From an uncultured Acidobacteriota bacterium (GTDB lineage Bacteria; Acidobacteriota; Vicinamibacteria; Vicinamibacterales; Fen-181): a stretch of 64,000 nucleotides of DNA. Every line of letters begins with the position of its first letter. The first letter of the stretch is position 1. Location: the NCBI GenBank assembly GCA_963844875.1, contig CAWJPZ010000005.1, positions 24,681 through 88,680 of the forward strand, in the 5' to 3' direction. The notes beneath the pieces were generated by a model. It had not been told where the DNA came from and made no database searches. It saw nothing but the letters and a program-made list of their open reading frames with translations. Made by a program: the position numbers and the translations under genes. Of the stretch, positions 8,331 to 45,568 are shown one piece after another.

Positions 8331-8428
8331 GGCTTCACGCTCCAGGCTTCGGGCGTCTGGCCGGACACGGGCCCAACGCCCAGAGCCCAAGGCTGCCCAG
8401 GGCCTGGAGCCGAGAGCCCAGAGCCCTT
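8331..8428. repeat. 7-nt-periodic array (14 heptamers), GGCTTCN family, imperfect inverted arms
   Basis: GGCTTCA CGCTCCA GGCTTCG GGCGTCT GGCCGGA CACGGGC CCAACGC CCAGAGC CCAAGGC TGCCCAG GGCCTGG AGCCGAG AGCCCAG AGCCCTT. It lies in the divergent intergenic region between the rhomboid gene and the SDR gene. Confidence 0.8.
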
Positions 8429-8437
8429 CAGATCCGG

Positions 8438-8443
8438 TAGAAT
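8438..8443 (+). promoter_or_regulatory. Candidate -10 box TAGAAT
   Basis: GGTAGAATGG lies about 85 nt upstream of GTG 8527. The same hexamer recurs upstream of four other genes in the window. Confidence 0.3.
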
Positions 8444-8526
8444 GGCCGCTGGTCCCCCGCGGTGCCGAACCGCCCCGTTCATCCCGTCACGCGTCCTGTT
8501 CGTCTCCTCGACAAGGAGGGTCTTTC

Positions 8527-9546
8527 GTGCGCAAACCCGTCGTTCTCATCACCGGCGCCGGCGGCGAAATCGGCCACGGCCTGATCAGCAGCCTGGCCGC
8601 CGACGGCAGCCGCGGCATCATCACGCTCGACGTCAACCCGCTCGAGCCCTCGCTCGGCAAGATGGTGTCGCGCGAGTTCCAGGGCTCGATTCTCGATACG
8701 AACCTGCTCGACCGTATCGTCGCCGAGTACCAAGTCGACCTCGTCTTCCACCTGGCGGCGCTCCTCTCCACCCGGTCGGAATTCACGCCAATCGCCGCGC
8801 ACGAGGTCAACGTGGGCGGGACCCTCAACCTGCTGGAGTTCGCGCAGAAGCAGGGCGAGTCGCACGGCCGGCCCGTCGTGTTCCTGTATCCCTCGTCGAT
8901 TGCCGCCTACGGCATGCCCGACCTGGAGACGAAGGAGCGGGCGGGCGAGGTGAAGGAAGACCAGTACAACCACCCCAGCACGATGTACGGCTGCAACAAG
9001 CTGTACTGCGAGCAGCTGGGCGATTACTACAGCAAGCACTACAAGCAGCTGGCGAAGGACTCGGTCAGCCGGAAGGTGGATTTCCGGTGCGTGCGCTTCC
9101 CGGGTCTCATCTCGGCGGTTACGGTGCCATCGGGCGGCACGTCCGACTTCGCGCCCGAGATGATTCACGCCGCGGCCCGCGGCGAGGCCTACGCGTGCTT
9201 CGCGCGGCCGGACACGCGGATTCCCTTCATGGCGATGCCCGACGGCGTGGATGCGCTGCTGCAGCTGGCGGCCGCGCCCCGCGAGCGGCTGCGCCGCACG
9301 GCCTACAACGTGGGGGCGTTCAACCCGTCGGCCGACGAAGTGAAGGAACTGGTGGTCCAGTCGTTTCCCGGCGCGCAGATCTCGTACTCGGTGGACGAGC
9401 AGCGGCAGGGGATCCTCGACTCGTGGCCGGCCGACGTGGACGACTGCGCCGCCCGGAAGGATTGGGGCTACGCGCCGAAGTACAACTTCGAACGCGCGTT
9501 CTCCGAGTACCTCATCCCGACGATCAGGCAGCGGTATCAGAAGTAG
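8527..9546 (+). CDS. NAD-dependent epimerase/dehydratase (SDR) family protein, L-threonine 3-dehydrogenase-like
   Basis: GTG start with an AAGGAGGG ribosome-binding site. It has the Rossmann motif ITGAGGEIG, the YGCNK catalytic YxxxK and a PSGGTSDFAPEMIHAA segment resembling SDR-type TDH. Confidence 0.7.
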   Translation: MRKPVVLITGAGGEIGHGLISSLAADGSRGIITLDVNPLEPSLGKMVSREFQGSILDTNLLDRIVAEYQVDLVFHLAALLSTRSEFTPIAAHEVNVGGTLNLLEFAQKQGESHGRPVVFLYPSSIAAYGMPDLETKERAGEVKEDQYNHPSTMYGCNKLYCEQLGDYYSKHYKQLAKDSVSRKVDFRCVRFPGLISAVTVPSGGTSDFAPEMIHAAARGEAYACFARPDTRIPFMAMPDGVDALLQLAAAPRERLRRTAYNVGAFNPSADEVKELVVQSFPGAQISYSVDEQRQGILDSWPADVDDCAARKDWGYAPKYNFERAFSEYLIPTIRQRYQK

Positions 9547-9556
9547 AACCCTTGTC

Positions 9557-9619
9557 GTGGCTAGTGGCTAGTGGCTGGTGGCTGGACTGCCCACTAGCCA
9601 CTGCCCACCAACCACTACC
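9557..9619. repeat. 7-nt-periodic array GTGGCTA/GTGGCTG x4 facing CACTAGC/CACTGCC-type heptamers
   Basis: GTGGCTA GTGGCTA GTGGCTG GTGGCTG GACTGCC CACTAGC CACTGCC CACCAAC CACTACC. It lies between the convergent stops at 9546 (+) and 9643 (-). Confidence 0.8.
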
Positions 9620-9642
9620 CCTGTCCTGCCAGGCTGTCGACC

Positions 9643-10620
9643 TCACTGGCCCGGTATCAAGACGATCTTCCCGTGCGCTCCCGGCGCCATCACCGCCTCG
9701 TGGGCCAGCCGTGCGTCGGCGAGCGGGAACCGGCGGCCGACGATCGGCCGCAGCGTCCCGCTTCGCAGGCCGGCGCCAATCGCCGCGTGAATCTCCAGCA
9801 TGTCGCCGGCGGTTGCGTTGAACAGGATCATCCCCCGGATGTCGGCGTCTCGGGCCATCGCCTGCCGCGCGTCGATCTCGACCGTTCCCCGGTTGCCGAT
9901 CACGACGACCCGCCCGTGCGGGGCGAGGAGGCCGAGGTCGGTATTGAGATTCACGTTGGCGAGCATCTCGAGGATGACGTCGAACCCGCGGCCGCCTGTC
10001 GCCGCCATCATCCCCGCGGCGTAGCCCGGCGCCGCGTGGCTGAAGACCGCGGCCGCGCCCTCCGTCCTGGCGAGATTCAGGCCCTCGGCGGTTCCCGCCG
10101 TAGCGAAGACGACCGTGCCGGCCGCGCGCGCGAGTTGGATGGCGGCCGTGCCGACGCCGCCGCTGCCGCCGTGCACGAGGACCGTCTCGCCCGGTCGTGC
10201 CTGGGCCCGCTGGAAGAGCCCGCGGTAGGCTGTCCCATAGGGAACGCCAACCCCGGCCCCTTGCTCGAACGAGACCGCGTCGGGGAGCGGGTAGACCTGC
10301 GTGGGGGTGCAGACGGCGAGTTCCGCGTACGCGCCGTACGGACCCGCGATGGTGCCGGTGATGTAGACCCGGTCGCCGGGCGCGATGCCCGCGACCTCAC
10401 GTCCGACGGCTTCCACGGTGCCTGCCGCGTCCGCGCCGGGCGTGAACGGGAGCGCCGGCTTTCGCGCGTAGGCCCCCTTCCTGATGTAGGTTTCGACCGG
10501 GTTCACGCCGACCGCGCGAACCCGCACGAGCACCTGCCCGGGCCCGGCTGCCGGGTCGGGAACATCTTCGAACCGCAGCACGCCGGGCTCGCCGAATTCA
10601 TGGACCACGATCGCCTTCAC
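9643..10620 (-). CDS. NADPH:quinone oxidoreductase / zeta-crystallin-type medium-chain dehydrogenase
   Basis: VKAIVVHEFGEPGVLRFEDVPDP...VLVHGGSGGVGTAAIQLA. GTG start at 10620 with a GCAAGGAGGAC ribosome-binding site. Confidence 0.8.
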   Translation of the reverse strand: MKAIVVHEFGEPGVLRFEDVPDPAAGPGQVLVRVRAVGVNPVETYIRKGAYARKPALPFTPGADAAGTVEAVGREVAGIAPGDRVYITGTIAGPYGAYAELAVCTPTQVYPLPDAVSFEQGAGVGVPYGTAYRGLFQRAQARPGETVLVHGGSGGVGTAAIQLARAAGTVVFATAGTAEGLNLARTEGAAAVFSHAAPGYAAGMMAATGGRGFDVILEMLANVNLNTDLGLLAPHGRVVVIGNRGTVEIDARQAMARDADIRGMILFNATAGDMLEIHAAIGAGLRSGTLRPIVGRRFPLADARLAHEAVMAPGAHGKIVLIPGQ

Positions 10621-10881
10621 ACGTCCTCCTTGCCGCACCGGGCTTGCAGGCCTGCGTCGCCCGGGCACTGGTTGTATTGTTTCACGACTGCCGTCCCGGC
10701 TTGGAACCGGCGAGAAACCTCAAGAAAACGGCGGCTGATGTAGAAGTTACCCGTCCCGCCGCGCGGTCCGCCCGCGTCGGGTCGCGGACGCGCCCGCCGA
10801 TCGTCCGATTGCGGCCTGAAACGCGCCGTTTTCCGGCTGGCCTCCCTCTTGCCTTGTCCGGGCAAAGGAGTGTGGCACAGC

Positions 10882-11187
10882 ATGGTCCCGCAGAACGCCG
10901 TCATCGTCTGGCAGCTGTTTGGGTTCGTGGAGGAGGTGGACTGCTACTTCGTGCGGAGTCCCCGCGACTTCACGCTCACCGTCGAACGCGCCGGCGAGCG
11001 GCTGGCGGAAGAGCGTTATTCGAGCCTTCACGAGACGATCGCCCGGGCGCGCGAGATGAAGCGCGACCTCATGGACGTAGGATTCAAGGCGGTCCCGCTC
11101 GCAGAGACGGAACCCGGCCTGGAGTCGCTGCTCCGGCAATTCGTGCGTGAAGGCACCACGCACCTCCACGCCGTCCCCGGCGCCTGA
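10882..11187 (+). CDS. Hypothetical protein (about 101 aa)
   Basis: Third-position GC is very high throughout, and AAGGAG lies upstream. I recognise no family. The start is uncertain (10849 or 10882). Confidence 0.45.
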   Translation: MVPQNAVIVWQLFGFVEEVDCYFVRSPRDFTLTVERAGERLAEERYSSLHETIARAREMKRDLMDVGFKAVPLAETEPGLESLLRQFVREGTTHLHAVPGA

Positions 11188-11215
11188 TCTCCTTTCGCTG
11201 CCGGGGCCGATTCGC

Positions 11216-11221
11216 TATGAT
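11216..11221 (+). promoter_or_regulatory. Candidate -10 box TATGAT, 6 nt before the ATG (possible leaderless mRNA)
   Basis: TATGATgcgggcATG. There is no Shine-Dalgarno sequence between the hexamer and start 11228. Confidence 0.3.
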
Positions 11222-11227
11222 GCGGGC

Positions 11228-12230
11228 ATGACGCCCGCCACCCCGCTCACCCCGCTCACCCCGAAGACCCTGATGGACCTGGCGACCGCGTTTCAGCGGA
11301 GCCGCCCCCTCCTGACCGCATTCGAACTCGGCCTGTTCACCGCGATCAACGGCGAGGAGCGCACCTCCGCGGAAGTGGCGGAGGCGCTCGGCACCGACCC
11401 GCGGGCCACGGACCGCCTGATGAACGCGCTGGCGGCCATCGGCCTGCTCGAGAAGAGCGACGGTCGGTTCCGCAACACCGCCGTGGCCGAATCGCACCTC
11501 GTCAAGGGGCGCCCCGACTACATGGGCGGCCTCGGGCACACCAATCACCTGTGGGACACCTGGAGCCGGCTGACGGAGGTCGTGCGCGAAGGGCATCCCG
11601 TCGGCCTGGCGGACACCAACGACCGCGGCGACGACTGGCTGCGCCCGTTCATCGCCGCCATGCACACCCGCGGCCGCCAGTCGGCAGCCGAGGTCGTCGG
11701 CTTGCTGAATCTCGACCGCGTGTCGCGTGTCCTGGACGTGGGCGGCGGGTCCGGGGTCTACGCGATGGCTTTCGCGCGCGCCGGGCGGGGCATTTCCGCG
11801 GTGGTGTTCGACCTGCCGAACGTGATCCCCCTCACGCGCATGTACGTCGCGCAGGAGGGGCTGTCGGCCGAAGTGACCACGGCCGCGGGCGACTACCTGG
11901 CCGCTCCGCTCGGCGAGGCGCTTCGACCTCGTCTTCATGTCCGCGGTGATCCACAGCAACGCGGTCGATGACAACCGGCTGCTCTTCAAGAAGGCGGCGC
12001 AGGCGCTGAATCCCGGGGGGCAACTCGTCGTCCAGGATTTCCTCATGACCGAGGAGCGCGACGGCCCGCTCATGCCCGCGCTGTTCGCGCTGAACATGCT
12101 GGTGGGGACGCCCGAGGGAGACACGTTCACCGAGTCCGAGGTGCGGACGTGGATGCTCGATTCCGGCTTCGAATCGATCGAACGCACGGACACGAGCTTC
12201 GGCACGAGCCTCATCGTCGGGCGGCGGTAG
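11228..12230 (+). pseudogene. Class I SAM-dependent O-methyltransferase (dimerisation domain plus Methyltransf_2 type); one frameshift
   Basis: It has an N-terminal winged-helix dimerisation region and the SAM motif VLDVGGGSGVYA. The frame changes near 11908-11915 (...LGEA|FDLVFMSAVIHS...), joining ORFs 11147..11971 and 11937..12230. Confidence 0.75.
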
Positions 12231-12240
12231 CAGGGGACCC

Positions 12241-12504
12241 ATGGAGCCCGGAGCGCTCTGGCAGCACGCCTCGGAGATCCTGCGTGGGATGGCCCTCGCG
12301 CGCCACGAACGGCAGGTGCGTGCGGAGGCGATCGAACTCCAGGACCTCTTCCTGCTGCTCTGTTTCATGGACGTGATGGGGCTGCCGAACCCGGCAGCCC
12401 TCTACCTGGTGGACCTGTACCCCTACCTGCTCGAGGAGTTCCACCTCTGGCACCGCAGGATGGGCGTCGACAGGTCGCCGCTCGCGACCTTCTCCTGCTG
12501 CTGA
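12241..12504 (+). CDS. Small conserved-looking protein ending in Cys-Cys-stop
   Basis: 87 aa with high GC3, ending ...SPLATFSCC*. It lies 3 nt upstream of the ArsA-like ATPase. I recall an NCBI family name of this kind ('cory-CC-star'), but cannot verify it here. Confidence 0.55.
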   Translation: MEPGALWQHASEILRGMALARHERQVRAEAIELQDLFLLLCFMDVMGLPNPAALYLVDLYPYLLEEFHLWHRRMGVDRSPLATFSCC

Positions 12505-12507
12505 ACC

Positions 12508-13476
12508 GTGCGTCACCTCCTGTCCCGGCACATCCTGTTCTTCGGCGGCAAGGGCGGCGTCGGAAAGACAACGTGCGCGGCGGCGTTCGCGCTGGCGGCC
12601 AGCCGGATGGGCCGTCGCGTCCTGCTCGTCTCGACAGACCCGGCGCACTCGACGTCCGACGTCCTTGGCGTCGAGCTCTCGGCCGGCGAGCGCGAGATCC
12701 TGCCCGGCCTGTTCGGGGTCGAGGTGGACGCCGACACCGAAGCGCGGCGCTACCTGGACGAGGCGAAGGAGCGGATGGCAGGCCTCTTCAGCCCGGGGGT
12801 GTTGAAGGAGGCCGCACGCCAGATCGAACTCACCGCCGCCATGCCGGGGGTGGCCGACGTGGCGCTCTTCGACCGGATGTCGCGGTTGATCGCCGCCGAC
12901 GCCAGCCGTTACGACCTGGTGGTGTTCGACACGGCCCCGACCGGCCATGCCCTGCGCCTGCTGCGGATGCCCGAGCTGATGGGCACCTGGGTCCAGGCGC
13001 TGTCGGCCCGGCGGCGCGAGTCGCACGCGCACGCGGCGGACGGAACGGGCGGGCTCGCCGACCCGGGGCCTGCCGGCAATCAGCGCGACCCGGTCCTGGA
13101 GATACTGGAGGCGCGTATGGCCCGCCTGTCGGCCGTTCGCACCGAGTTGACGGCCGGGGACCGGGTGGCCTTCGTGCTCGTTCTGATCCCCGAGAAGCTC
13201 CCGATCGAAGAATCGGCGCGGGCCGCGCACGCGCTGGCGGAGGCCAACATCCACCTGGGGGCCATCATCGTCAACCGTGTGCTGCCCGACGAAGCGGAGG
13301 GCAGCTACTTCGAGGCGCGGAAGGCCCAGGAGCGGGTGCACCTGGCCGAGATCGACCGTCGGCTGCCCGCCGTGGCGCGGGTGTTCGTCCCGCAACTCGA
13401 ATCCGACGTGAGCGGATTCGCCAGCCTGGAGCGGATCGGCCGGTTCCTTGTGGATGAATCGGCGGGCGACAGGTAG
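12508..13476 (+). CDS. ArsA/Get3 family ATPase (single-domain, 322 aa)
   Basis: It has the deviant Walker A GGKGGVGKTT and the signature DTAPTGHALRLL, with a GTG start. Confidence 0.85.
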   Translation: MRHLLSRHILFFGGKGGVGKTTCAAAFALAASRMGRRVLLVSTDPAHSTSDVLGVELSAGEREILPGLFGVEVDADTEARRYLDEAKERMAGLFSPGVLKEAARQIELTAAMPGVADVALFDRMSRLIAADASRYDLVVFDTAPTGHALRLLRMPELMGTWVQALSARRRESHAHAADGTGGLADPGPAGNQRDPVLEILEARMARLSAVRTELTAGDRVAFVLVLIPEKLPIEESARAAHALAEANIHLGAIIVNRVLPDEAEGSYFEARKAQERVHLAEIDRRLPAVARVFVPQLESDVSGFASLERIGRFLVDESAGDR

Positions 13477-13479
13477 AAT
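13474..13479 (+). promoter_or_regulatory. Candidate -10 box TAGAAT upstream of argR
   Basis: aggTAGAATacg lies 29 nt before ATG 13509 and overlaps the stop codon of the ArsA-like gene. Confidence 0.3.
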
Positions 13480-13508
13480 ACGCGGCGAGTGCGACGTTCG
13501 AGGGTCGA

Positions 13509-13962
13509 ATGACGAAGACACGGCGACAGACATTGATTCTCGAACTGGTGGACCACGAGGAGATCACCAGCCAGGAGGTGCTGCAGCGGCGGCTGCGCAC
13601 CCGCGGCGTCCATGCCACTCAGGCCACGCTCTCCCGCGACCTCAAGGAACTCGGGCTCGTGAAGCGCGCCGGCGACGGCGCCTACAGCCGGCCGGGCCAG
13701 GATTCGCCCAACGTACGAACTCGCTCTCGTGCAGTTGCAGCGTGTGGCGGTGCGCTCGCTCACCCGAACCGCCCGGGTGGACCAACTCGTGGTCCTCCGG
13801 ACTCCCCCCGGTGAAGCCCAGCACCTCGCGCTGGCCATCGACCGCACGGCATTCCCCGAAGTGGTCGGGACGATCGCGGGCGACGACACGGTCCTCGTGA
13901 TCGCGGGCGGCAGCAGGGAAGCGGCCGCCTTCCTCGAACAGCTCGAGAAACTCACGCGCTGA
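13509..13962 (+). pseudogene. argR: Arginine repressor ArgR; one frameshift
   Basis: The N-terminal winged helix is [31 protein letters not shown]. The C-terminal oligomerisation domain (...[19 protein letters not shown]...[12 protein letters not shown]) is in another frame, with a shift at a CCC run near 13707-13712. Confidence 0.85.
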
Positions 13963-14020
13963 ACGACATTCGCACTCGCCCCCTCTTGCGGCGGCTGCGG
14001 AGGGCCGCGGATGTAATAGT

Positions 14021-14047
14021 TATGCATTAGACTGCATAATGATGCGA
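14021..14047. promoter_or_regulatory. Candidate ArgR operator (ARG-box-like 18-bp palindrome TATGCA-N6-TGCATA plus ATGCGA)
   Basis: TATGCATTAGACTGCATAATGATGCGA ends 39 nt upstream of argG. The arms are perfect inverted 6-mers, and it overlaps a CATAAT -10-like hexamer. Confidence 0.55.
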
Positions 14048-14085
14048 GGCGGCGGCCGCCTGTCGCCGTCCGAGGGGGAGACGAG

Positions 14086-15381
14086 ATGGAACGTATCGTG
14101 TTGGTGTACTCCGGGGGGCTGGACACGTCGGTCGCCATCCCATGGCTGGCCGAGACTTACGGGGCCGAGGTCGTCGCGGTCACGATGGACCTTGGCCAGG
14201 GCGAGAACCTCGACTCGGCGCGGGACCGCGCGCTGGCGACCGGCGCGGTCAACGCGTACGTGATCGACGTCCAGCAGGAGTTCGCGCAGGACTACATCCT
14301 CCCCGCGCTCCAGGCCGGCGCCATCTACGAAGACAAGTACCCGCTGGCGACGGCGCTCGGGCGGCCGCTCATTGCCAAGAAGCTCGTCGAGATCGCGCAC
14401 ATCGAGCACGCCACCGCCATCGCGCACGGCTGCACCGGCAAGGGGAACGACCAGGTGCGCCTCGACGTGTCCGCGCGTGCGCTCGACCCGGGGATCAAGG
14501 TCTACGCCCCGGCCCGGGTGTGGGGCATGACGCGGGCCGACGAGATCGAATACGCGCGCGTGCGCGGCATCTCGGTCCCGGTGACGAAGGAGAGCCCGTA
14601 CAGCACCGACGAGAACCTGTGGGGCCGATCGATCGAGTGCGGCGTCCTCGAGGACCCCTGGGAAGAGGCGCCGGAAGACGCCTACTCGCTCACCCGGTCG
14701 GGGGCGGACTGTCCCGACCTGCCCGCCTACCTCGAGTTGGCGTTCGAGGCGGGAGTTCCGACCGAGGTGAACGGCGTGCCGATGCCGCTCACCGAGCTGA
14801 TCGACAGCGTCGCCACCATCGCGGGCGTGCACGGCGTCGGGCGGATCGACATGGTCGAGAACCGGCTGGTCGGGATCAAGTCGCGCGAGATCTACGAGAC
14901 CCCGGCCGCGGTCGTCCTGCATGCCGCCCATCGGGAACTCGAGGCGCTGGTCACCCCGAAGGACCTCATCCGGCTGAAGCGCGAACTGGGCATCAAGTAC
15001 GCCGACCTGGTTTACAACGGCCTCTGGTTCAGCCCCATGCGGCAGGCCATCGATGCCTTCGTGGCCACGATGCAGCCGCAGGTCACCGGGCAGGTCCGGC
15101 TGCGCCTCTTCAAGGGGGAGTGCCGGGTGGTCGGGCGGCGATCGCCCTTCGCCCTCTACGACCATTCGCTGGCGACCTACGACAAGGGCGACGCGTTCGA
15201 CCACACCGCGGCCGAAGGCTTCATCAAGTTGTGGGGGTTGCCGGTCGAAACGGTGGCGCGTCAATCCGCGAAGCTGGGGTCCGCCAGCCCCATGTCGCGC
15301 GCAGCGGTCGCCGTTGGCGTGACGCGCGCGGCCGCCGGTCACCCGAGGGCGGCGGTGGTCGCCGACTGGGTCGGGCTCTAA
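14086..15381 (+). CDS. argG: Argininosuccinate synthase
   Basis: MERIVLVYSGGLDTSV is the ATP-PPase motif, and the protein is ArgG-like throughout. The last ~35 aa (low-complexity, Ala/Gly/Val-rich) look atypical, so the true stop may be earlier. Confidence 0.9.
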   Translation: MERIVLVYSGGLDTSVAIPWLAETYGAEVVAVTMDLGQGENLDSARDRALATGAVNAYVIDVQQEFAQDYILPALQAGAIYEDKYPLATALGRPLIAKKLVEIAHIEHATAIAHGCTGKGNDQVRLDVSARALDPGIKVYAPARVWGMTRADEIEYARVRGISVPVTKESPYSTDENLWGRSIECGVLEDPWEEAPEDAYSLTRSGADCPDLPAYLELAFEAGVPTEVNGVPMPLTELIDSVATIAGVHGVGRIDMVENRLVGIKSREIYETPAAVVLHAAHRELEALVTPKDLIRLKRELGIKYADLVYNGLWFSPMRQAIDAFVATMQPQVTGQVRLRLFKGECRVVGRRSPFALYDHSLATYDKGDAFDHTAAEGFIKLWGLPVETVARQSAKLGSASPMSRAAVAVGVTRAAAGHPRAAVVADWVGL

Positions 15382-15388
15382 CCGCCGT

Positions 15389-16817
15389 ATGGCCAACTTG
15401 TGGTCCGGCCGGTTCGGCAGCGAGCCCGATCGAGACGTCTTCGAGTTCGGACGGTCTTTCCCGTTCGACCGGCGCCTCTTCGAGGACGACGTGCGCGGCA
15501 GCCTCGCCTGGGTGGAGGCGATTGCCGAAGCCGGGGCGATCGAGCCGGCGGACGCCCGCGCGATTGCCGAGGGGCTGCGCGGGATCCTCGACGACGGCTT
15601 GCGGTCGCCCGGCTTCCTCGAGGGCGACGACGAGGACGTTCACGCGTTCGTCGAGCGGAAGCTCGTCGAGCGGGTGGGAGAGGTGGGGAAGCGGCTCCAC
15701 ACCGGCCGCTCGCGCAACGAGCAGGTCTCGGTGGACCTGCGGCTGTACCTGAAGCGCCGCATCCCGGCCATCCAGGCCCGGCTCGTCGCCCTCGCCGCCG
15801 CCCTGGCCGGGCAGGCGGGATCGGCCGGCGACGCCACGATGCCGGCTTATACGCACCTCCGGCGTGCCCAGCCGGTCCTGGTAGCGCATTTCTGGCTCGC
15901 GCACGCCGCTGCCCTGCGGCGCGACGACGACATGTTCTCGTTCGCGGGCTCCACCGCCGACGCGCTGCCGCTCGGCTCCGGGGCGGTAGCCGGCACGAGT
16001 TACGCGCTCGACGTAAAGGTCGCTCGCCCGCCGCCTCGGGTTCTCGCACATCGCCCTGAACAGCATCGACGCGTCGTCGGATCGCGACTTCGTCTCGGTG
16101 TTCCTCCACGCGTGCTCGCTGGCGATGGTGCATCTCAGCCGGCTGTCGGAGGACCTCGTCATCTTCACCGGAGAGGAGTTCCGCTTCTTCGAGCTCTCGG
16201 ACGCGGTTTCAACCGGCAGCAGCCTGATGCCGCAGAAGAAGAACCCCGACCCGCTGGAGTTGATCCGCGGCAAGGCGGGCCGCGTGATCGGCCGCCACAC
16301 CGGCTGGCTGACGACGATGAAGGGGCTGCCGGCGGGGTACAACAAGGACCTCCAGGAAGACAAGGAGGCCGTGTTCGACGCCGAAGCGACGGTGGGCGCG
16401 TCGCTCACCGCCATGGCGACGATCGTGGCCGGGCTGCGGCTGGACGAAGCGCGGGCGCACGCCTGGTCGTCCGGGCTTCTGCTGGCCACGGACGTGGCGG
16501 AGTACCTCGTTGCGCGCGGGATGCCGTTCCGCACGGCCCACGAGACGGTGGGAGCGATGGTCCGTCGGCTGGCGGAGGACGGCCGCGACTTCCAGTCCTT
16601 GTCGGCGGCGGAGTGGGCCTCGTTCAGCCCGCTGTTCCAGCCGAGCGTCGTCCAGGCCGTCACGCCCGCCGCCGCCGTGGCGGCCCGCCGGACGCCGCAG
16701 TCGACGAACCCGGATGCTGTTGCAGCGGCGCTGGCCGAACTTCGCGGGTGGGTCACCGCCCGCTCGGCCGGCTCGCCCGCCAAACCGGCCGGCGACCAGG
16801 GGCCGGCCGGTTCCTGA
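15389..16817 (+). pseudogene. argH: Argininosuccinate lyase; one frameshift
   Basis: It has MANLWSGRFG... and the fumarate-lyase signature GSSLMPQKKNPD. The frame changes near 16016-16022 (...YALDVKV|LARRLGFSHIALNSIDASSDRDFVSVFLHACS...). Confidence 0.9.
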
Positions 16818-16819
16818 AC

Positions 16820-20548: not shown

Positions 20549-20550
20549 AC

Positions 20551-21029: not shown

Positions 21030-21113
21030 GGCTTCAGGCTCCAGGCTTCAGGCTCTGGGCCGCGTCTGGCCCCGGCTCAGGGCCCAGGGCTCAAGCCTCA
21101 AGCCTCAGGCCTG
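21030..21113. repeat. 7-nt-periodic array (12 heptamers), GGCTTCN family, imperfect inverted arms
   Basis: GGCTTCA GGCTCCA GGCTTCA GGCTCTG GGCCGCG TCTGGCC CCGGCTC AGGGCCC AGGGCTC AAGCCTC AAGCCTC AGGCCTG. It fills the gap between the NuoI-like gene and hycI. Confidence 0.85.
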
Positions 21114-23752: not shown

Positions 23753-23787
23753 GGCTTTCGGCTTCTGGCTTCAGGCTTCCGGCGGTG
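23753..23787. repeat. 7-nt-periodic array GGCTTTC GGCTTCT GGCTTCA GGCTTCC GGCGGTG
   Basis: This is a direct heptamer array with no inverted partner, lying in the 47-nt gap between the NuoC-like and large-subunit genes. Confidence 0.8.
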
Positions 23788-32048: not shown

Positions 32049-32163
32049 GGCTTCGGGCTGCCACCTTCCGGCTTCGGGCCGCGTCAGGCATCGGGCAAAT
32101 GGTTGCGGCGCTGTCGGCCCTGTCTTCCGCCGGCCGGAAGCCGAGAGCCGGAGGCCTGGAGCC
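32049..32163. repeat. 7-nt-periodic array, GGCTTCN family, inverted arms around a ~50-nt centre
   Basis: GGCTTCG GGCTGCC ACCTTCC GGCTTCG GGCCGCG TCAGGCA ... GCCGGAA GCCGAGA GCCGGAG GCCTGGA GCC. It fills the gap between the polyferredoxin stop and the DUF362 start. Confidence 0.8.
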
Positions 32164-35009: not shown

Positions 35010-35096
35010 CAATGCACAATGCATAATGCCCAGCGCAGAATGCACAACGCGCAAAGGCCCTTCCTTCTTGCATTGTGCATTTTGCATTGTGCATTC
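35010..35096. repeat. 7-nt-periodic AT-richer array (NAATGCA family) forming a long hairpin
   Basis: CAATGCA CAATGCA TAATGCC CAGCGCA GAATGCA CAACGCG ... TCTTGCA TTGTGCA TTTTGCA TTGTGCA. The outer arms match at 19 of 20 positions. It lies just downstream of the FKBP gene stop at 35115. Confidence 0.8.
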
Positions 35097-38529: not shown

Positions 38530-40203
38530 ATGACACGATCGTTCGCTCGGTTCCTGACGGTGGCGGCGGCCGGCTGCGCGCTGGCCGCCTGCGTCGGCGC
38601 GTCCTCCTCGGCTCCCAAGGCCCCCGAGGCCGTGCCGTTCCCGGCCATCGACGGCAACGCCGTCCTGGCGCACACGAAGATCCTCGCCTCCGACGCGTAC
38701 GAAGGCCGCGCGCCCGGGACGCACGGCGAGGAGGTCACGGTGGCTTACATCACCGACCAGTTCAGGAAGGCGGGTTTGAAGCCCGGCAACCCCGACGGCA
38801 GCTACGTCCAGAAGGTGCCGATGGTCGGCATCGTCACCGACCAGAAGGCCGTGCTCTCGTTCCGGCGCGGCGCAACGGAGCAGAAGCTCGCCTGGCGCGA
38901 CGACTTCGTGGCCTGGACCAAGCGCGTCGCGGACACGGTGACGGTGGACAAGTCGGACGTCGTGTTCGTCGGCTACGGCGTGCAGGCGCCCGAATTCAAC
39001 TGGGACGACTACAAGGGCGTCGACCTCAAAGGCAAGACGATGATCGTGCTGGTGGGCGACCCGCCGGTGACCGACCCGGCCAACCCCGGCGAACTGGACC
39101 CGAAGGTCTTCGGCGGGAAGGCGATGACCTACTACGGGCGGTGGACCTACAAGTACGAGATGGGGCAGAAGATGGGGGCCGCCGCCGTGCTCATCGTCCA
39201 CGAGACGGGGCCGGCCGGGTATCCGTTTGCGGTGGTGCAGGGGAAGATCGCCGAGCAGTTCAGCCTGGTGGCGCCCGACAAGAACATGAGCCGGGCCGCC
39301 GTGGAGGGCTGGATCACCTTCGAGCAGGCGAAGAAGCTGTTCGCCGCCGCGGGCAAGGACTTCGACGCGGCGAAGAAGGCCGCGCTCACGGCGGCGTTCA
39401 CACCGGTGCCGCTCGGCGCCTCCGCGTCCGTCACGCTGCGCAACACCATCCGCGGCATCGACTCGCACAACGTCGTGGGGAAGATCGAGGGAAGCGACCC
39501 GGCTCTCAAGAACGAGTACGTCATCTACACGTCCCACTGGGACCACTTCGGCATCGGGGTGCCCGTCAACGGCGACAAGGTGTACCACGGGGCCGTCGAC
39601 AACGCGACGGGTATTGGCGGCATGATCGAACTCGGCCGCGCGTTCGCGAAGATGCCGACGGCGCCGAAGCGGTCGATCCTGATGCTGGCCGTGACGGCCG
39701 AGGAGCAGGGATTGCTGGGATCCGGCTACTACGCGGCGAACCCGCTGTACCCCCTCGAGAAGACGGCGGGCGTCGTCAACATGGACGCGCTGAACGTCTA
39801 CGGCAAGACCAGGGACATCACGATCACCGGGCTGGGGAACTCGGAACTCGACGACTACGCGACGAAGGTTGCCGCGGAACAGGGGCGCGTGATCCGTCCC
39901 GACCCGGAGCCCGAGAAGGGCGGCTTCTTCCGTTCCGACCACTTCCCGTTTGCCCAGAAGGGCGTGCCGGCGCTGGCGAGCGGCGGCGGGATCGACTACG
40001 TCGGCAAGGACCCCGGCTGGGGACGCGCCAAGAGCGACGCCTACACCGCGAACGACTACCACAAGCCGTCCGACAACGTCCGGCCGGACTGGGACATGAG
40101 CGGCGCCGTGCAGGACCTCCAGTATTTCTGGATGGTCGGTTACCGGCTGGCGCAGGCCGACCGGTTCCCGGAGTGGAAGGCGGGATCGGGGTTCAAGCGG
40201 TAG
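38530..40203 (+). CDS. M28 family aminopeptidase with PA domain (lipoprotein)
   Basis: It has the lipobox AAGCALAAC and the M28 metal-ligand blocks HWDHFG, GAVDNATG, AVTAEEQGLLGS and FFRSDHFPF. Confidence 0.85.
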   Translation: MTRSFARFLTVAAAGCALAACVGASSSAPKAPEAVPFPAIDGNAVLAHTKILASDAYEGRAPGTHGEEVTVAYITDQFRKAGLKPGNPDGSYVQKVPMVGIVTDQKAVLSFRRGATEQKLAWRDDFVAWTKRVADTVTVDKSDVVFVGYGVQAPEFNWDDYKGVDLKGKTMIVLVGDPPVTDPANPGELDPKVFGGKAMTYYGRWTYKYEMGQKMGAAAVLIVHETGPAGYPFAVVQGKIAEQFSLVAPDKNMSRAAVEGWITFEQAKKLFAAAGKDFDAAKKAALTAAFTPVPLGASASVTLRNTIRGIDSHNVVGKIEGSDPALKNEYVIYTSHWDHFGIGVPVNGDKVYHGAVDNATGIGGMIELGRAFAKMPTAPKRSILMLAVTAEEQGLLGSGYYAANPLYPLEKTAGVVNMDALNVYGKTRDITITGLGNSELDDYATKVAAEQGRVIRPDPEPEKGGFFRSDHFPFAQKGVPALASGGGIDYVGKDPGWGRAKSDAYTANDYHKPSDNVRPDWDMSGAVQDLQYFWMVGYRLAQADRFPEWKAGSGFKR

Positions 40204-40257
40204 GCAGGGCGGATGGCGGAGGGCGGAGGACGAGCCGGAGGGTGGAGGACGAAGGCC

Positions 40258-41931
<1,674 letters not shown>

Positions 41932-41937: not shown

Positions 41938-41982
41938 GGCTCGAGGCTCAGGGCTCAAGGCGCAAGGCTCAGGGCCAGAGCC
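41938..41982. repeat. 7-nt-periodic array GGCTCGA GGCTCAG GGCTCAA GGCGCAA GGCTCAG GGCCAGA
   Basis: It lies directly after the M28 stop at 41931. The heptamer is the reverse complement of the GAGCCCT array at 42266. Confidence 0.8.
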
Positions 41983-42017: not shown

Positions 42018-42281
42018 ATGGCGTGTTACCGGTACCGGCGTGAAGTGTTGACCGAACTGCTCCGACACGGGGTGCGGCCCACGGACCGCACCCCGCCGTC
42101 TATAGTCAAGTCGTTCGTGAACGACCTGTATCGCTTCGAGATTCGGCGCCTGCGGGACCGGTTGCTGCGCGGCGAGATTCCGAAGCCGTCCTATGCGCAG
42201 CACGTCATCGAGCTCCGGAAGCGCTACCCGATCCTTTCGCTCGACGTGCGCTTCTGGACGGAGGCGAGCCCTGAGCCCTGA
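42018..42281 (+). CDS. Small basic hypothetical protein (87 aa)
   Basis: MACYRYRREVLTELLRHGVRPTDR...; codon usage is high in GC3. The last 5 codons lie inside the GAGCCCT array. I recognise no family. Confidence 0.45.
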   Translation: MACYRYRREVLTELLRHGVRPTDRTPPSIVKSFVNDLYRFEIRRLRDRLLRGEIPKPSYAQHVIELRKRYPILSLDVRFWTEASPEP

Positions 42282-42286
42282 GCCCT
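42266..42286. repeat. (GAGCCCT)x3 heptamer array
   Basis: Three perfect copies span the stop of ORF 42018..42281 and the stop of the convergent tricorn-like gene at 42285. Confidence 0.8.
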
Positions 42287-45200
42287 ATTTCTCGTACCTC
42301 CAGCTCTTCTCCTTCAGCATCTTCATCGCCTCGTCCACGGCGGCCTTCAGTTCGCGGTCGAATCCCTTCAGTTCGTCCTCGGGCGAGTTCTTGACGAAGA
42401 CGTCGGGCGCGACGCCGTAGTTCTCGAGGTTCACGCCGTAGTTGTTCGGCTTCGAGGGGTCCCACGTCACCACCAGCGATCCGGGCGTCCGGATGCTGCC
42501 GCCGTTGATCAGGCCGTACGACCCGGTGGCGATGACCGAGGCGTTGGTCGGGTTGCCCACGATGCGGCCGAGGCCGAGGTCGCGGAAGCCCATGGGGGTC
42601 ACTTCGCTGTCGGATGCGGAGCGCCAGTTGATCAACATCACCTTCGGCCCGACCACCATCGACCGCGGCCGCCGGCCCCACGTGCGCGCGCCCCAGCGGT
42701 TGTTCCAGAACTCGTACGGGCGGCGTTCGAGGATGTCGAGGAGTTCCTGGTCGATGTTGCCGCCGCCGTTGTAGCGGATGTCGACGACCAGCCCCTTCTT
42801 GTTCCAGAATTGGTCGATCTCGTTCTGGAACTTCTTGAGCGACGGCTGGTTCATCGACTGGATGTGCACGTACGCGATCTGGCCGTTGGTGTCCTTGTCC
42901 ACGAACTCGCGGTTCCGTTCCACCCATTCCCCGTACTTCACCTCGGAGAGCGACGCGACCGTCTTGATGCGGACGTCGCGGGCGTCGGTGCCCGCGGCGG
43001 TGCGCGAGATCCTGAACGTCACGTACTCGTTGAGCGGGTCGTTCAGCAGCCGCCAGTAGTTGTCGCCGGCCTTCACCGCTTTCCCGTCGATCGCGAGGAC
43101 GTAGTCGCCGACCTTGATGTCCAGCCACTCCTTGTCGGCCGGGCCCTTCCGGTAGATCCGGCTGATCCTGTAGAGGCCGCCATCGGGCACGAGGTCGAGT
43201 CCCGGCAGGCGCGTCGTGTAGGCGGGCGGGATCTCGCGGCTCGCCGGGCCGCTCACCCCGGTGTGCGACGCGTTGAGCTCGCCAATCATCTCGTTGGCGA
43301 TGTCGTAGACGTCGTCGTTCTCGCCCACGTACTTCAGCAGCGGCTCGTAGGTGGCCTTGACCGCGCCCCAGTCGCGGCCGTGCATCTTCTCGTCGTAGAA
43401 CTGGTAATTCATCACGCGCCAGCACTCGTCGAAGATCTGCTGCCACTCGACGCGGTTGTCCACCTTCACGGTCATCGCGGTGTTGATCTTCGTCTTCTTC
43501 TTCTCGCCCGACAGCTCCATCTGGTAGAGCTCGCCGTCCTGCGTGTAGAAGACCTTCTTCGTGTCGGCCGTCGCCGTCAGCCCTGCAAATGCGCCGTCGG
43601 CCACCCGCTTGCGGTCCTTGCCGTCGGTGCCGACCGAGAAGAGGCCCCGGCCCTTCTCGTCGCTGCTCACGAAGTAGACGAGCCGGCCGTCGGCCGAGAT
43701 GAAGTAGGGGCCGTCCGCCTCGGTGCCCTTCGTCAGCTGGATGGCGCGGCGGTCGATGCCGCCGGCATCGACCTGGATGCCGGCTGGGGCCGGTGCAGGC
43801 GCGGCGTCCTTGCCCTTCTGTTCGGCGCGCGCCTTCCTGGCGCGCTCCTTCACCAGCGGGTCGTCCGGGTCCTCGCGGAGGCGCTCGAGCGACACGATGA
43901 ACAGGTGCATCACGCCGCCGTCGCGCTCCGAGAGGAAGACCAGCTTCCGGCCGTCCGGCGTGAAAGCGGCGCGCCCCTCGGAGAACGGGTTCGGCGTGAC
44001 GTCGTATTCCTTCTTGCCCGCGATGTCGTAGAGATAGACGTCGGCGTTCTGGTCGTCGTCGCGCCGCGTGTAAGCCAGCCACTTGCCGTCCGGCGAGAAG
44101 TTGACCGACTGGAACCCGCCGGCCGGGTTGGCGCGCAGTTCCACGCTGCTGCCGCTGTCGATGTCGGCGGTGAAGAGGCGGTTCGCCGCGACGTACGCAA
44201 GCTGCTTCGAATCAGCCGACCAGCCGCCGAGGTTCTTGAAGGAGGCGTGCGTGGTCAGTTTCCGGCGCGTGCCCGCCTGGCGGTCGAACACCCAGACTTC
44301 CTCTTCCCTGGATTCGTCGGAGGTGTAGGCGACGTAGCGGCCGTTCGGCGAGAAGCTCTCGCGGCGATCGCGCCACGAGGAGGAGGTCACCAGCTGGCGC
44401 TCGCCGAATTCGGGGTCCGTGGGAACGACCAGGATCTCACCGTGAAAGTCGACGGCGGCATAATCGCCGTCGGGCGACGGCGAGAAGCCGTCGATGCGGC
44501 CCTTGGACTGGACGAACTGCACCAGGTTCTCCTTCGGATCGTAATCGAGATCGATCGCCACCTTCCGGGGCGACCCGCCGGGAACGGCGAGCGTCCAGAG
44601 TTCGAACTCGTTCTCGTAGGAGATCGTCTTGCCGTCCGGGCTGATCGACGGGAACTGGACCCCGTCCTGCTTGTGGAAGGTCACCTGCGTCGGCTGCCCG
44701 CCGGTCGGTGCGATCTTCCAGATGTTGAAGATCCCGTCCTTCTCGGAGGAGAAGTAGACCATCCCGTCGGCGCCCCACATCGGGTGAAGGCTCTGCCGCT
44801 TCTCGCGGAACGCCTGCAGGTCGGTTCCTGTCAGCTGGGTGATGGCCTTCGTCTTCAGGTCCTGGACGAAGATGTCGTCCGCCGCGTTGCCCTTGTAGCC
44901 CTTGCGCCAGTAGCGCACCGGGATGCGATTGAAGGCGAGCGCCGATCCGTCCTGCTTGATCATGCCGTTGCTGCCCACGTCGACGGGCAGCGGTTCGGGC
45001 AGGCCCCCTTCGAGTGCGACGCTGTAGAGCGGGCTCCCGAACGGCTGGCCGCTCCGGTTGCTGGCGAAGATGATCCGCTTGCCGTCCGGCGTCCAGTAGA
45101 GGACGGTGTCGGCCGTCGTCAGGAAGGTCAACTGGCGGGCCTCGCCCCCGGCCGCCGGAATGACCCACACGTCGTCGTTGCCCATGCGGTTGCTCGTGAA

Positions 45201-45440
45201 CGCCACCCACTTGCCGTCGGGAGAGAAGCGCGGGAAGGTGTTGCGCGAGACGTGGGCCGTCAGGCGAGCCGGGCGCGCGCCGTCGGCGTCGGCCACCCAC
45301 AGGTCGCCGTGGTACGCGAAGGCCAGCTTGCCGTTCGAGACGTGGGGATACCGGGCGAACTTGATGGGCGCGGCGAGGGCGGCCGTGGCCGCCACCACCG
45401 CGAACAGGCAGACCGCCGTGATCACGAGGCTCTTTCGCAT
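42285..45440 (-). CDS. Tricorn-like protease: TolB/WD40-type beta-propellers, PDZ and a C-terminal S41 peptidase domain
   Basis: The 1051-aa ORF is intact. It has a signal peptide, repeated FSPDGK.. propeller blades, and an S41-type core: a LVVDIRYNGGG block in the nucleophile region, ...LINWRSASDSE.... Confidence 0.85.
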   Translation of the reverse strand: MRKSLVITAVCLFAVVAATAALAAPIKFARYPHVSNGKLAFAYHGDLWVADADGARPARLTAHVSRNTFPRFSPDGKWVAFTSNRMGNDDVWVIPAAGGEARQLTFLTTADTVLYWTPDGKRIIFASNRSGQPFGSPLYSVALEGGLPEPLPVDVGSNGMIKQDGSALAFNRIPVRYWRKGYKGNAADDIFVQDLKTKAITQLTGTDLQAFREKRQSLHPMWGADGMVYFSSEKDGIFNIWKIAPTGGQPTQVTFHKQDGVQFPSISPDGKTISYENEFELWTLAVPGGSPRKVAIDLDYDPKENLVQFVQSKGRIDGFSPSPDGDYAAVDFHGEILVVPTDPEFGERQLVTSSSWRDRRESFSPNGRYVAYTSDESREEEVWVFDRQAGTRRKLTTHASFKNLGGWSADSKQLAYVAANRLFTADIDSGSSVELRANPAGGFQSVNFSPDGKWLAYTRRDDDQNADVYLYDIAGKKEYDVTPNPFSEGRAAFTPDGRKLVFLSERDGGVMHLFIVSLERLREDPDDPLVKERARKARAEQKGKDAAPAPAPAGIQVDAGGIDRRAIQLTKGTEADGPYFISADGRLVYFVSSDEKGRGLFSVGTDGKDRKRVADGAFAGLTATADTKKVFYTQDGELYQMELSGEKKKTKINTAMTVKVDNRVEWQQIFDECWRVMNYQFYDEKMHGRDWGAVKATYEPLLKYVGENDDVYDIANEMIGELNASHTGVSGPASREIPPAYTTRLPGLDLVPDGGLYRISRIYRKGPADKEWLDIKVGDYVLAIDGKAVKAGDNYWRLLNDPLNEYVTFRISRTAAGTDARDVRIKTVASLSEVKYGEWVERNREFVDKDTNGQIAYVHIQSMNQPSLKKFQNEIDQFWNKKGLVVDIRYNGGGNIDQELLDILERRPYEFWNNRWGARTWGRRPRSMVVGPKVMLINWRSASDSEVTPMGFRDLGLGRIVGNPTNASVIATGSYGLINGGSIRTPGSLVVTWDPSKPNNYGVNLENYGVAPDVFVKNSPEDELKGFDRELKAAVDEAMKMLKEKSWRYEK

Positions 45441-45502
45441 TGCGCGCTCCGGAGTGAATGGGGGACGGGGTTGCTGGGACGGGCCGGGATGTTACCTCAG
45501 GG

Positions 45503-45568
45503 CAGCCGAAAGCTGGGAGCCGAAAGCCTCAGCCGGACGCCGGACCGCAAGCCGCAAGCCGAAAGCCT
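45503..45568. repeat. 7-nt-periodic array (AGCCGAA/CCGCAAG type; complement orientation of the GGCTTCG family)
   Basis: CAGCCGA AAGCTGG GAGCCGA AAGCCTC AGCCGGA CGCCGGA CCGCAAG CCGCAAG CCGAAAG CCTG. It lies in a divergent intergenic region and abuts a TAGAAT hexamer. Confidence 0.8.

Follow-up and report, generated by a model that had tools for sequence, protein, structure and literature searches.

Heptanucleotide tandem arrays in the intergenic DNA of a Vicinamibacterales acidobacterium, probably long simple sequence repeats

Why bacteria favour tandem repeats of 7 nt, and whether the resulting arrays act at all, is the question raised by the spacers of a 64,000-nt stretch of DNA (hereafter the window) from an uncultured acidobacterium of the order Vicinamibacterales (contig CAWJPZ010000005.1). 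The original prediction, made from the letters alone, had pointed to at least six intergenic loci built of heptamers anchored on GGC or GCC. We searched for arrays with Tandem Repeats Finder (TRF) and a lag self-match scan, placed them on a gene map drawn by a rough gene caller made for the present analysis, annotated a subset of the window open reading frames (ORFs) with Pfam domains, and compared the window with related loci labelled L001 to L220, among which L001 is an independent Logan assembly of run ERR10755939 and L002 is the closest relative of the window. Our results suggest that the arrays are probably heptanucleotide long simple sequence repeats (SSRs), similar to the short tandemly repeated repetitive (STRR) sequences, that arose by slippage and inverted duplication, fill free intergenic space and act at most as non-specific stem-loops. 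This clade of Vicinamibacterales has an unusually strong tendency to form them.

Seven-nucleotide periodicity and placement of the arrays

Each of the six predicted loci (loci 1 to 6 below) was confirmed at its given coordinates as a tandem of heptamers, with 7 as the best lag in every case. Their lag-7 self-identities (0.57, 0.68, 0.71, 0.50, 0.71 and 0.63) compare with ~0.29 in dinucleotide shuffles, and none of 2000 such shuffles reached the observed values. When the whole window was scanned for 28-nt stretches with at least 22 self-matches, 7 were found at lag 7 and 0 to 1 at each other lag from 2 to 12. In total, at least 12 arrays with several unrelated units are present in the window, and for all 12 the best lag is 7 (p ≤ 0.0045). 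Intergenic DNA was enriched in 7-nt autocorrelation over shuffles in both the window (z = 4.2) and the relatives (z = 9.6), while coding DNA stayed at baseline; in pooled intergenic DNA a lag-14 harmonic accompanies the lag-7 excess. The prediction had named a lack of such enrichment as its refutation, and the excess over shuffles therefore removes that objection on the available sequence. All six loci lie between gene calls, as had been claimed, and so do all the strong arrays, which are thus heavily biased to non-coding DNA. The independent assembly of ERR10755939 has locus 2 without a single base difference, which excludes an assembly artefact; like arrays are present in Illumina-based contigs of relatives from JGI, ENA and Logan.

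The window has a G+C content of 69%. On the minus strand lies an operon for a [NiFe] hydrogenase of group 4 (Ech/Mbh-like), which includes HycI, ferredoxin-like, NuoH-like, large-subunit, 30-kDa and NuoB-like genes. Elsewhere there are peptidase genes of the tricorn and M28 types, a group of rhomboid, epimerase and alcohol dehydrogenase genes, and genes of a two-component system. The arrays, six of which are additional to those first listed, are as follows.

8331..8428, locus 1: between the divergent rhomboid (minus strand) and epimerase (plus strand) genes, with GTAGAAT directly downstream at 8437; four left-arm units (GGCTTCA CGCTCCA GGCTTCG GGCGTCT), an aperiodic centre and five right-arm units (GCCCAGG GCCTGGA GCCGAGA GCCCAGA GCCCTTC); p ≤ 0.0005 for its lag-7 identity; RNA fold −55.4 kcal/mol, z = −2.1.
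9557..9620, additional: hairpin of (GTGGCTR)x4 against about four inverted units (consensus ACTACCC), between the convergent epimerase (plus strand) and alcohol dehydrogenase (minus strand) genes; found by TRF; lag-7 identity 0.70; fold z = −3.1 (9545-9630).
21030..21113, locus 2: imperfect hairpin of ~84 nt with 6-bp helices and a mismatch every 7 nt, filling the spacer between the gene for the ferredoxin-like hydrogenase subunit (stop 21115) and hycI (start 21024), both on the minus strand; sense fold −52.7 kcal/mol, z = −4.0, an energy matched by 0 of 200 shuffles.
23753..23787, minus strand, locus 3: single arm, (NGAAGCC)x4 in the mRNA sense, immediately before the Shine-Dalgarno sequence and start codon of the gene for the large subunit of the [NiFe] hydrogenase; fold z = +1.6, less structured than shuffles.
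32049..32163, locus 4: heptamer arms at 32049-32085 and ~32132-32163 around an aperiodic centre, in the spacer of two minus-strand genes, one for a 4Fe-4S protein and one for a product whose N-terminus is like a twin-arginine export signal; long imperfect stem, overall fold z = −0.3.
35010..35095, additional: hairpin of about six CAATGCA-type units against (TGCATTN)x4, downstream of an FKBP-type isomerase gene (minus strand) and upstream of GTAGAAT at 34913-34907 (minus strand); found by TRF; lag-7 identity 0.65; fold z = −3.8 (35000-35114).
40206..40248, plus strand, additional: AGGGCGG-type units between M28 peptidase paralogues (stop 40203, probable second start 40258); found by TRF; lag-7 identity 0.64, p = 0.0045.
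41938..41982, plus strand, locus 5: (GGCTCRR)x5 right behind the stop codon that ends the second M28 peptidase gene; weak structure, z = −1.7.
42266..42286, additional: perfect (GAGCCCT)x3 (TRF, 100% matches; lag-7 identity 1.00), the reverse complement of the locus 5 unit type, overlapping the stops of an 87-codon ORF (plus strand) and of the convergent tricorn-type protease gene (minus strand).
45503..45568, plus strand, locus 6: complement orientation, RAGCCGA x4, GCCGGAC x2 and CCGCAAG x3, between the divergent tricorn-type protease (minus strand) and LysE-family (plus strand) genes; unstructured, z = +0.1 and +1.6 for the two strands.
53450..53478, plus strand, additional: (GCAGGCC)x4, followed by GTAGAAT at 53481; found by TRF; lag-7 identity 0.82; located at or just past the 3' end of a predicted ORF; coding status uncertain, the gene caller placing the array within that end.
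58585..58636, plus strand, additional: NGAATGY-type units (GAATGCN) in the spacer between histidine kinase and response regulator genes, with GTAGAAT inside at 58604; found by TRF; lag-7 identity 0.62; fold z = +2.2, less structured than shuffles.

These results changed the description of the arrays in several ways. Strict periodicity had been overstated: the arrays are degenerate, the register shifts across centres, and the middle ~45 nt of locus 4 are aperiodic. Inverted arms are real for loci 1, 2 and 4, while loci 3, 5 and 6 have a single arm. The shared centre held in part, loci 2 and 4 matching at 13 of 15 bases (GGGCCGCGTC[T/A]GGC) and locus 1 requiring a 3-nt gap; as a conserved core it had to be rejected, since the 15-mer at up to 3 mismatches occurs 11 times in the GC-rich window DNA against 16.8 expected by chance, and similar strings occur across unrelated loci, including those of Chloroflexi. 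Nor do the arrays form a single GGCTTCN family with a conserved core: there are several unrelated units, among which the GGCTTCN type is merely the commonest (GGCT-anchored unit triplets number 7 in the window). What the arrays have in common is the 7-nt period and the intergenic site, not the GGCTTCN sequence. Their placement within operons, between convergent genes and in divergent promoter regions was supported. In the lag scan the only strong non-7 match in the window was a 9-nt-period repeat at 11234-11270 (CCCGCTCAC, 3.4 copies), at the 5' end of a predicted ORF (11228-11971).

About half of the window arrays are long hairpins, with 4- to 6-bp helices and a mismatch every 7 nt. Two-armed arrays fold with z = −2 to −6.7, while the single-arm arrays (loci 3 and 6, 58570-58650 and 42255-42295) are no more structured than shuffles and mostly less so. 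The sense strand was favoured in 6 of 11 comparisons of sense and antisense folding energy, a result without systematic difference that lends no support to selection at the RNA level. The statement that the arrays are not simply terminators was borne out. No U-tract follows any of them and their tails are not U-rich, except in part behind locus 2, where UUCUUAU overlaps the start codon of hycI; a consensus scan of 8000-24500 placed no terminator-like site at the arrays and flagged no canonical promoter there. A search of both strands of the window against Rfam 15 at the gathering score gave no match.

Typically an array begins a few bases from a stop codon and ends just before the next Shine-Dalgarno sequence or start codon. 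For the 23 arrays that lie within 15 nt of a stop codon we considered that TAG might be a target site, and rejected it (11/23 against 104/259 overall, p = 0.5). The idea that units bearing stop codons are selected to block three frames was likewise rejected (11/46 arrays against 9.4 ± 2.8 for random intergenic 7-mers, p = 0.34). Judged by eye, units bearing the palindromes CAGCTG, TCCGGA, GATC or CTAG were not visibly commoner than expected. The differences among units gather at certain positions of the heptamer (p = 2e-4), which fits a constrained core with a free spacer base, the unpaired base of the hairpins; amplification of variant units would also yield such clustering.

The motif GTAGAAT occurs 6 times in the window against 0.9 expected, a number that 0 of 100 shuffles reach (8437, 13473, 34913 on the minus strand, 45569, 53481 and 58604). 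Five of the six copies are intergenic, facing the downstream gene just after a heptamer array, and the arrays end just before the motif or up to ~100 nt upstream of it. Other species have it conserved, as CCGGTAGAAT, ahead of the epimerase gene. GTAGAAT is probably a −10 promoter element of this lineage. Locus 6 ends at the copy at 45569, 8 nt before the LysE ATG at 45584, so that the LysE mRNA would be leaderless or nearly so if GTAGAAT were the −10 box.

Several arrays adjoin genes with features of their own. The M28 peptidase gene is duplicated in tandem (38530-40203 and 40258-41931, offset 1728 nt, 77-80% DNA identity), and both copies end in ...GGTAG followed by different arrays, AGGGCGG-type for the first and GGCTCRR-type for the second. 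If the second copy is read as the longest ORF, its start (40213) falls within an array, and the ATG at 40258, after GGAGGA, is a likelier start. Between the M28 peptidase and tricorn-type protease genes lies the 87-codon ORF (42018-42281, plus strand), without a Pfam match, which has inverted heptamer arrays on both sides and its stop codon within (GAGCCCT)3. Its exact protein is on record, and a JGI hypothetical protein of 58 residues belongs to its 90% cluster. For the tricorn-type protease, the ferredoxin-like protein and the response regulator, look-ups of the exact sequence gave no match, probably on account of differing start-codon calls.

Distribution and turnover among relatives

The nearest relatives of the hydrogenase large-subunit protein (78-94% identity, after repair of a frameshift described below) are metagenome-assembled genomes labelled Acidobacteria, two of them Vicinamibacterales, and the remoter matches are Anaerolineae. 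Eleven related acidobacterial loci (194 kb) hold 12 strong lag-7 arrays, against 1 in 69 Chloroflexi loci with the same hydrogenase operon (1219 kb). Over the total of 258 kb of Vicinamibacterales DNA we counted 19 arrays at lag 7 and 0 to 2 at other lags, and GGCT-anchored arrays number 0 in 1.2 Mb of Chloroflexi DNA. Occurrence among the relatives is patchy: arrays abound in L007, L008, L010, L012 and L090, and the available stretches of L003, L004, L006 and L009 have none. Units are slightly more alike within genomes than between them (p = 0.03). A scan of viral contigs for (GGCTNNN)x3GGCT gave at least 120 matches, at a G+C of 0.32-0.70, many of them perfect and with 3 to 25 units; GGCT heptamer SSRs are thus widespread, with no specific link to the Vicinamibacterales lineage. 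Units containing CTGA (CGGCTGA, YAGCTGA, NAACTGA, CTTCTGA) recur in the relatives and in the viral matches.

Next, we compared orthologous spacers. The one between the NuoH-like and ferredoxin-like genes measures 17-34 nt in L003, L004, L005 and L011 and 86 aperiodic nt in the window, whereas in L007, L008 and L012 it consists of 100-140 nt of heptamers with differing units: (GGCTGAC)4 and seven GGCGTAG-type units in L007, (GGGATCR)6 and GCCGTRA units in L008, and ~18 CAGCTRA units in L012. In L090 the same spacer holds five TCTTCTG units in the mRNA sense. The L008 unit GGGATCG matches TAGGGGATCC at the same position in the array-free L003 allele, which suggests local amplification and a possible birth in situ.

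The sites of the window arrays vary likewise. The locus 2 spacer is 26-37 nt in L005, L007 and L008; other states among the relatives are an aperiodic 128 nt and, in L002, an 8-nt-period array at 12632-12759 (GGGCAACT/GAGTAACT, ~11 units, lag-8 identity 0.72), and the repeat-forming tendency is therefore not strictly confined to 7 nt. At the locus 4 site the relatives have no array (31-32 nt in L003, L005, L007 and L008; 61 nt in L006), at the locus 3 site a related (GCAAGCC)n occurs only in L002, and at the locus 1 site only ~17 nt lie between conserved flanks in L082-L090. The spacer of the 9557..9620 array holds different sequences in L082, L084, L088 and L090. Upstream of the NuoB-like gene, where the window has 12 nt, AGCCYTG units are found in L005, L007 and L008 (~5, 5 and 2-3) and GCTGYCA is common to L012 and L002. 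A GGCYCAR array has 4 units in L082 and is longer in L090. Runs of identical units are also present: (GGCTGAC)4 and (GGCGTAG)3 in L007, (CGTCCCT)4 in L002, (GAGCCCT)3 in the window and (CAGAAGA)5 in L090. At the junction of hycI with the MFS transporter gene, the window has ~2.1 kb (18413-20550, plus strand, a VWA-domain gene and a TPR gene) separating the two; the relatives have a short convergent spacer only, with a heptamer hairpin in several.

Differences of this kind extend to near-identical strains. Five JGI contigs encode an identical epimerase protein, with 0-3 differences over the 1020 nt of its gene, and four of them have TAG-GGATCAAGGCCCAAGGCTCAGGGCTCAGGCC...-TCA as the convergent epimerase/dehydrogenase spacer, while L084 has an unrelated GC-rich hairpin. 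L084 differs from L082 at 1/1020 nt in the epimerase gene and 2/774 nt in the dehydrogenase gene and shares its divergent spacer; the convergent spacers are unalignable. The second case is the species of L003, for which ten contigs encode an identical NuoB-like protein and present three alleles of the NuoH-like/ferredoxin-like spacer: an array-free one of 31 nt (L213, L218), one of 140 nt in which a central hairpin lies between (CGGGCAG)5 and (TTCTGAC)5 (L211, L212), and one of 129 nt (L220, L214). L211 and L213 differ at 1/1500 nt upstream and 3/118 nt downstream of the spacer. The filled alleles lack the empty-allele sequence, which indicates replacement of the whole spacer and no clean insertion. 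Several independent short-read Logan contigs (L214-L217) stop exactly at this spacer (near locus coordinate 7650-7720), consistent with array polymorphism within a sample.

Copy number and content are thus unstable, as had been anticipated, both between relatives and between strains with ~99.8% identical flanks: arrays are inherited over short distances, where they vary in copy number, and are gained, lost and replaced over longer ones. A role of the window arrays as rapid slippage switches does not follow, since imperfect arrays are poor substrates for classical rapid phase variation.

Described heptanucleotide repeats

The original prediction knew of no described element of this type. Heptanucleotide long SSRs are in fact already on record (PMC4679880, PMC4692102, PMC2700814). 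As cited in PMC4679880 and PMC4692102, Mrazek, Guo and Shah (2007) found heptanucleotides to be the most abundant class of long SSRs in most prokaryotic genomes and proposed that 7 nt is the stretch of DNA contacted by the polymerase, favouring slippage. Like those repeats, the window arrays are tandem 7-nt units above chance, mostly outside genes, patchy among lineages and of supposed slippage origin; unlike them, they are mostly degenerate and about half are paired as inverted arms. We found no report of heptanucleotide repeats in Acidobacteria in the literature searched.

The GGGAATC repeats of Xanthomonas and GGGGA(T/C)T repeats of Nostoc are intergenic, lie near ORF ends, are inverted in some cases and occur at the same gene pairs in related species, among which their length and sequence vary extensively; no role was found (Rehm et al., 2015, PMC4692102). 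The window arrays resemble them in all these respects: heptamers near ORF ends, some inverted pairs, the same genes, and variability between relatives. The Xanthomonas and Nostoc repeats belong to one G-rich unit family with a modal number of four units and demonstrated G-quadruplex formation (PMC4692102), whereas the window arrays are anchored on GGC/GCC, mostly without G3 tracts, and have several unrelated units. In none of the window arrays do four tracts of G3 or longer stand at heptamer spacing, the nearest cases being 42266-42286 (three GGG, minus strand) and 40206-40248; only (GGGATCR)6 of L008 (12097-12150) resembles the GGGNATC G-quadruplex repeats.

The STRR of Calothrix PCC 7601 comprise three tandemly repeated heptanucleotides, as cited in PMC4692102, and the heptamers at recF and recO of Nostoc had modest effects on reporter expression (bioRxiv 10.1101/2022.06.06.494920). 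Like these cyanobacterial repeats, the arrays comprise several families per genome and are found close to promoters or start codons, in some cases overlapping the start; the cyanobacterial units, which belong to another phylum, have a higher A+T content. TAACTGA repeats of Beggiatoaceae, cyanobacteria and Bacteroidetes lie just upstream of start codons (MacGregor, 2015, PMC4679880), and locus 3 and the relatives' arrays upstream of the ferredoxin-like gene also adjoin start codons. TAACTGA is a single conserved unit in 2-6 copies, found across phyla and almost never inverted, in contrast to the many and often inverted units of the window. Finally, Geobacter metallireducens has GGGACCG x4 (49 copies) and MTYCTGA x5 (15 of 16 sites) (Aklujkar et al., 2009, PMC2700814). 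These too are GC-rich tandem heptanucleotides scattered through a genome, and (TTCTGAC)5 in L211 (7756-7790) and L220 is a cyclic permutation that fits the MTYCTGA x5 consensus. In the Geobacter elements the copy number is fixed and the sequence is the same at many loci, and on that ground they received annotations as regulator sites or RNA elements; here number and sequence vary by locus. For 7-nt repeats in general no role has been found since the reports on Calothrix and the 2007 survey (PMC4692102).

Two further classes were compared. Repetitive extragenic palindromic (REP) elements, with the bacterial interspersed mosaic elements (BIMEs) and REPINs that they form, are defined sequences of 20-40 nt with conserved termini, many near-identical copies and a RAYT transposase, without heptamer substructure. 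Like those of Enterobacteria and Pseudomonas, the window hairpins are intergenic imperfect palindromes at gene ends and in operons, species-specific and absent in some strains, and by analogy both may stabilise mRNA. Unlike them, they showed neither conserved ends nor near-identical copies within the 64 kb covered, and no RAYT or other transposase was detected among the subset of window ORFs scanned against Pfam; the longest shared stretch is 23 nt, between two loci. A phase-variation contingency locus was rejected. The arrays are degenerate and lie after stops, upstream of a Shine-Dalgarno sequence or upstream of a −10-like motif, not between promoter hexamers, and their neighbours are genes for hydrogenase subunits, peptidases, an epimerase, a LysE-family transporter and a two-component system rather than the surface, restriction-modification or virulence genes of such loci.

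Origin and possible roles of the arrays

We propose that short 7-nt seeds, local or imported, would be amplified head-to-tail via slipped-strand mispairing, with the preference for 7 nt that is already on record for prokaryotes at large, and that inverted copies would come from strand-switch duplication or from a unit that is itself partly palindromic. The arrays would grow up to selected sequence (a stop codon, a Shine-Dalgarno sequence or start codon, a −10 box) and would afterwards decay by substitution, be lost or be replaced, giving fast turnover. Where both orientations are present, the DNA or transcript may fold into a long hairpin whose 4- to 6-bp helices are interrupted every 7 nt, and such a structure, whatever its sequence, may serve as a stem-loop at the end of a gene or between cistrons, in the way of REP/BIME in Escherichia coli. 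A role of this kind is plausible, although the tests made lend it no support. No sequence-specific function is needed to explain the observations, and the single-arm arrays are without evident role. The arrays have every listed feature of heptanucleotide long SSRs and STRRs (at least 3 tandem copies, an excess of period 7, a non-coding bias and variation between relatives), and none of the tests assigned them to intrinsic terminators, REP elements, contingency loci, G-quadruplex repeats or Rfam families.

Several points weigh against this account. The present data do not explain why the unit is 7 nt long. Replacement of whole spacers between near-identical strains exceeds the gain or loss of units and needs recombination or a copy mechanism, and the greater likeness of units within a genome is a weak hint of copying in the genome or of a genome-specific bias. 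The clustering of unit differences could mean a constrained 5- to 6-nt core instead of neutral decay. As to a hairpin role, folding energy does not distinguish the sense strand, U-tracts are lacking and array-free alleles exist. The sequence covered amounts to ~64 kb of the host genome and roughly 350 kb of related DNA.

The foremost alternative, which we regard as unlikely, is that the arrays are selected RNA stem-loops in the manner of REP/BIME, serving as 3'-end protectors, as terminators between convergent genes or as intercistronic structures that set the relative expression of operon genes. Structure alone would be selected, and heptamers would be this lineage's way of building hairpins. 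It is favoured by the finding that the same gene-end spacers hold hairpins of unrelated units in different species: downstream of hycI, GGCTGAC/GTCAGCC in L007 (z = −5.5), CAGTGGC-type units in L012 and CGGCTCY in L008, and downstream of the epimerase gene the GTGGCTR hairpin in the window and others in L088 and L084. Moreover, the base of the locus 2 stem brings the upstream stop codon beside the downstream start codon, and arrays halt before Shine-Dalgarno sequences and start codons. Against it stand the lack of a folding-energy advantage for the sense strand and of a U-tract after any hairpin, the single-armed half (approximately) of the window arrays, which are less structured than shuffles, the array-free 31-nt alleles of near-identical strains, and the short unstructured spacers found at the same sites in many relatives.

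Since whole spacers are replaced between strains with ~99.8% identical flanks, we also considered an active lineage-specific process, enzyme-mediated or based on array recombination, that would build, copy and swap heptamer hairpin cassettes in intergenic DNA as evolvable "tuning knobs" of expression for adjacent or downstream genes. We hold this to be quite improbable; if true, the arrays would be distinct hypervariable intergenic elements and not passive microsatellites.

It is very doubtful that the arrays are multimeric binding sites, in DNA or RNA, at which a protein would recognise a short core (e.g., GGC/GCC or GGCT) spaced at 7 nt. The concentration of unit differences at one or two positions would leave a conserved core of the required kind, GGCT anchors 7 window arrays and several in relatives with 0 across 1.2 Mb of Chloroflexi DNA, and five arrays lie within ~100 nt upstream of the −10-like GTAGAAT. 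Similar proposals exist for TAACTGA of Beggiatoaceae (PMC4679880), for the "global regulator" heptanucleotide sites of Geobacter (PMC2700814) and for the recF/recO heptamers of Nostoc (bioRxiv 10.1101/2022.06.06.494920). However, the window alone has at least six unrelated units (GGCTYNR, GTGGCTA, CAATGCA, AGGGCGG, GCAGGCC and GAATGCN), orthologous sites carry other units or no array, the presence or absence of arrays at strain level speaks against a required operator, and the adjoining genes are functionally mixed (hydrogenase, peptidases, epimerase, two-component system, transporter).

Small non-autonomous mobile elements, similar to miniature inverted-repeat transposable elements or REPINs and spread by a transposase or by gene conversion, with the heptamers as a property of their arms, are a highly improbable explanation. 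Loci 1 and 2 resemble each other in the centre and, in their left arms, share GAAGGCTTCA[C/G]GCTCCAGGCTTC (22/23 bases); four left arms can be aligned in register, with identities of 73-78%, and the ~100-nt loci 1 and 4 look inserted when compared with ancestral spacers of 17 and 31 nt; the replacement of whole spacers between near-identical strains, a possible GGGATC direct repeat around the L082 array and the weak similarity of units within a genome (p = 0.03) would also fit. Nevertheless, the 23-nt match is explicable by a small repertoire of units (rough probability ~0.5 over all comparisons) and the centre motif is not rarer than chance. Neither defined ends nor consistent target-site duplications were found, filled alleles lack the empty-allele sequence, units vary by locus and array lengths vary continuously, and no transposase was detected among the subset of window ORFs scanned against Pfam.

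The notion that the arrays arose by chance, or as artefacts of assembling a GC-rich metagenome-assembled genome from long reads, is already refuted, despite probable single-base indel errors in the source assembly, because no shuffle attains the observed lag-7 values (with 0 to 1 matches at other lags), locus 2 is identical in an independent assembly, and like arrays occur in many independent short-read assemblies and metagenome-assembled genomes of relatives. The errors concern the hydrogenase large subunit gene (22551-23736, minus strand), frameshifted at ~23007 by one extra base compared with L002 (TATCCCGGACTT against TATCCC-GATTT), and the antiporter-like subunit genes at ~25135-27500, which look fragmented; these are either long-read indel errors or genuine pseudogenes.

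The reading of the arrays as heptanucleotide long SSRs makes Acidobacteria a new phylum for a repeat class known from cyanobacteria, Xanthomonas, Geobacter and others. In practice, array spacers break short-read assemblies and can mislead automated start-codon calls (40213, 45458). For the biology of these repeats, this clade of Vicinamibacterales offers a GC-rich and phylogenetically distant case with many units per genome and recurring 7-nt modular stems. Its most useful aspect is the occurrence of natural empty and filled alleles in near-identical strains, inside a defined operon; assuming that a cultured relative, for which Vicinamibacter and Luteitalea are candidates, shares the arrays, such allele pairs would suit tests of transcript ends, operon polarity and repeat mutation rates.

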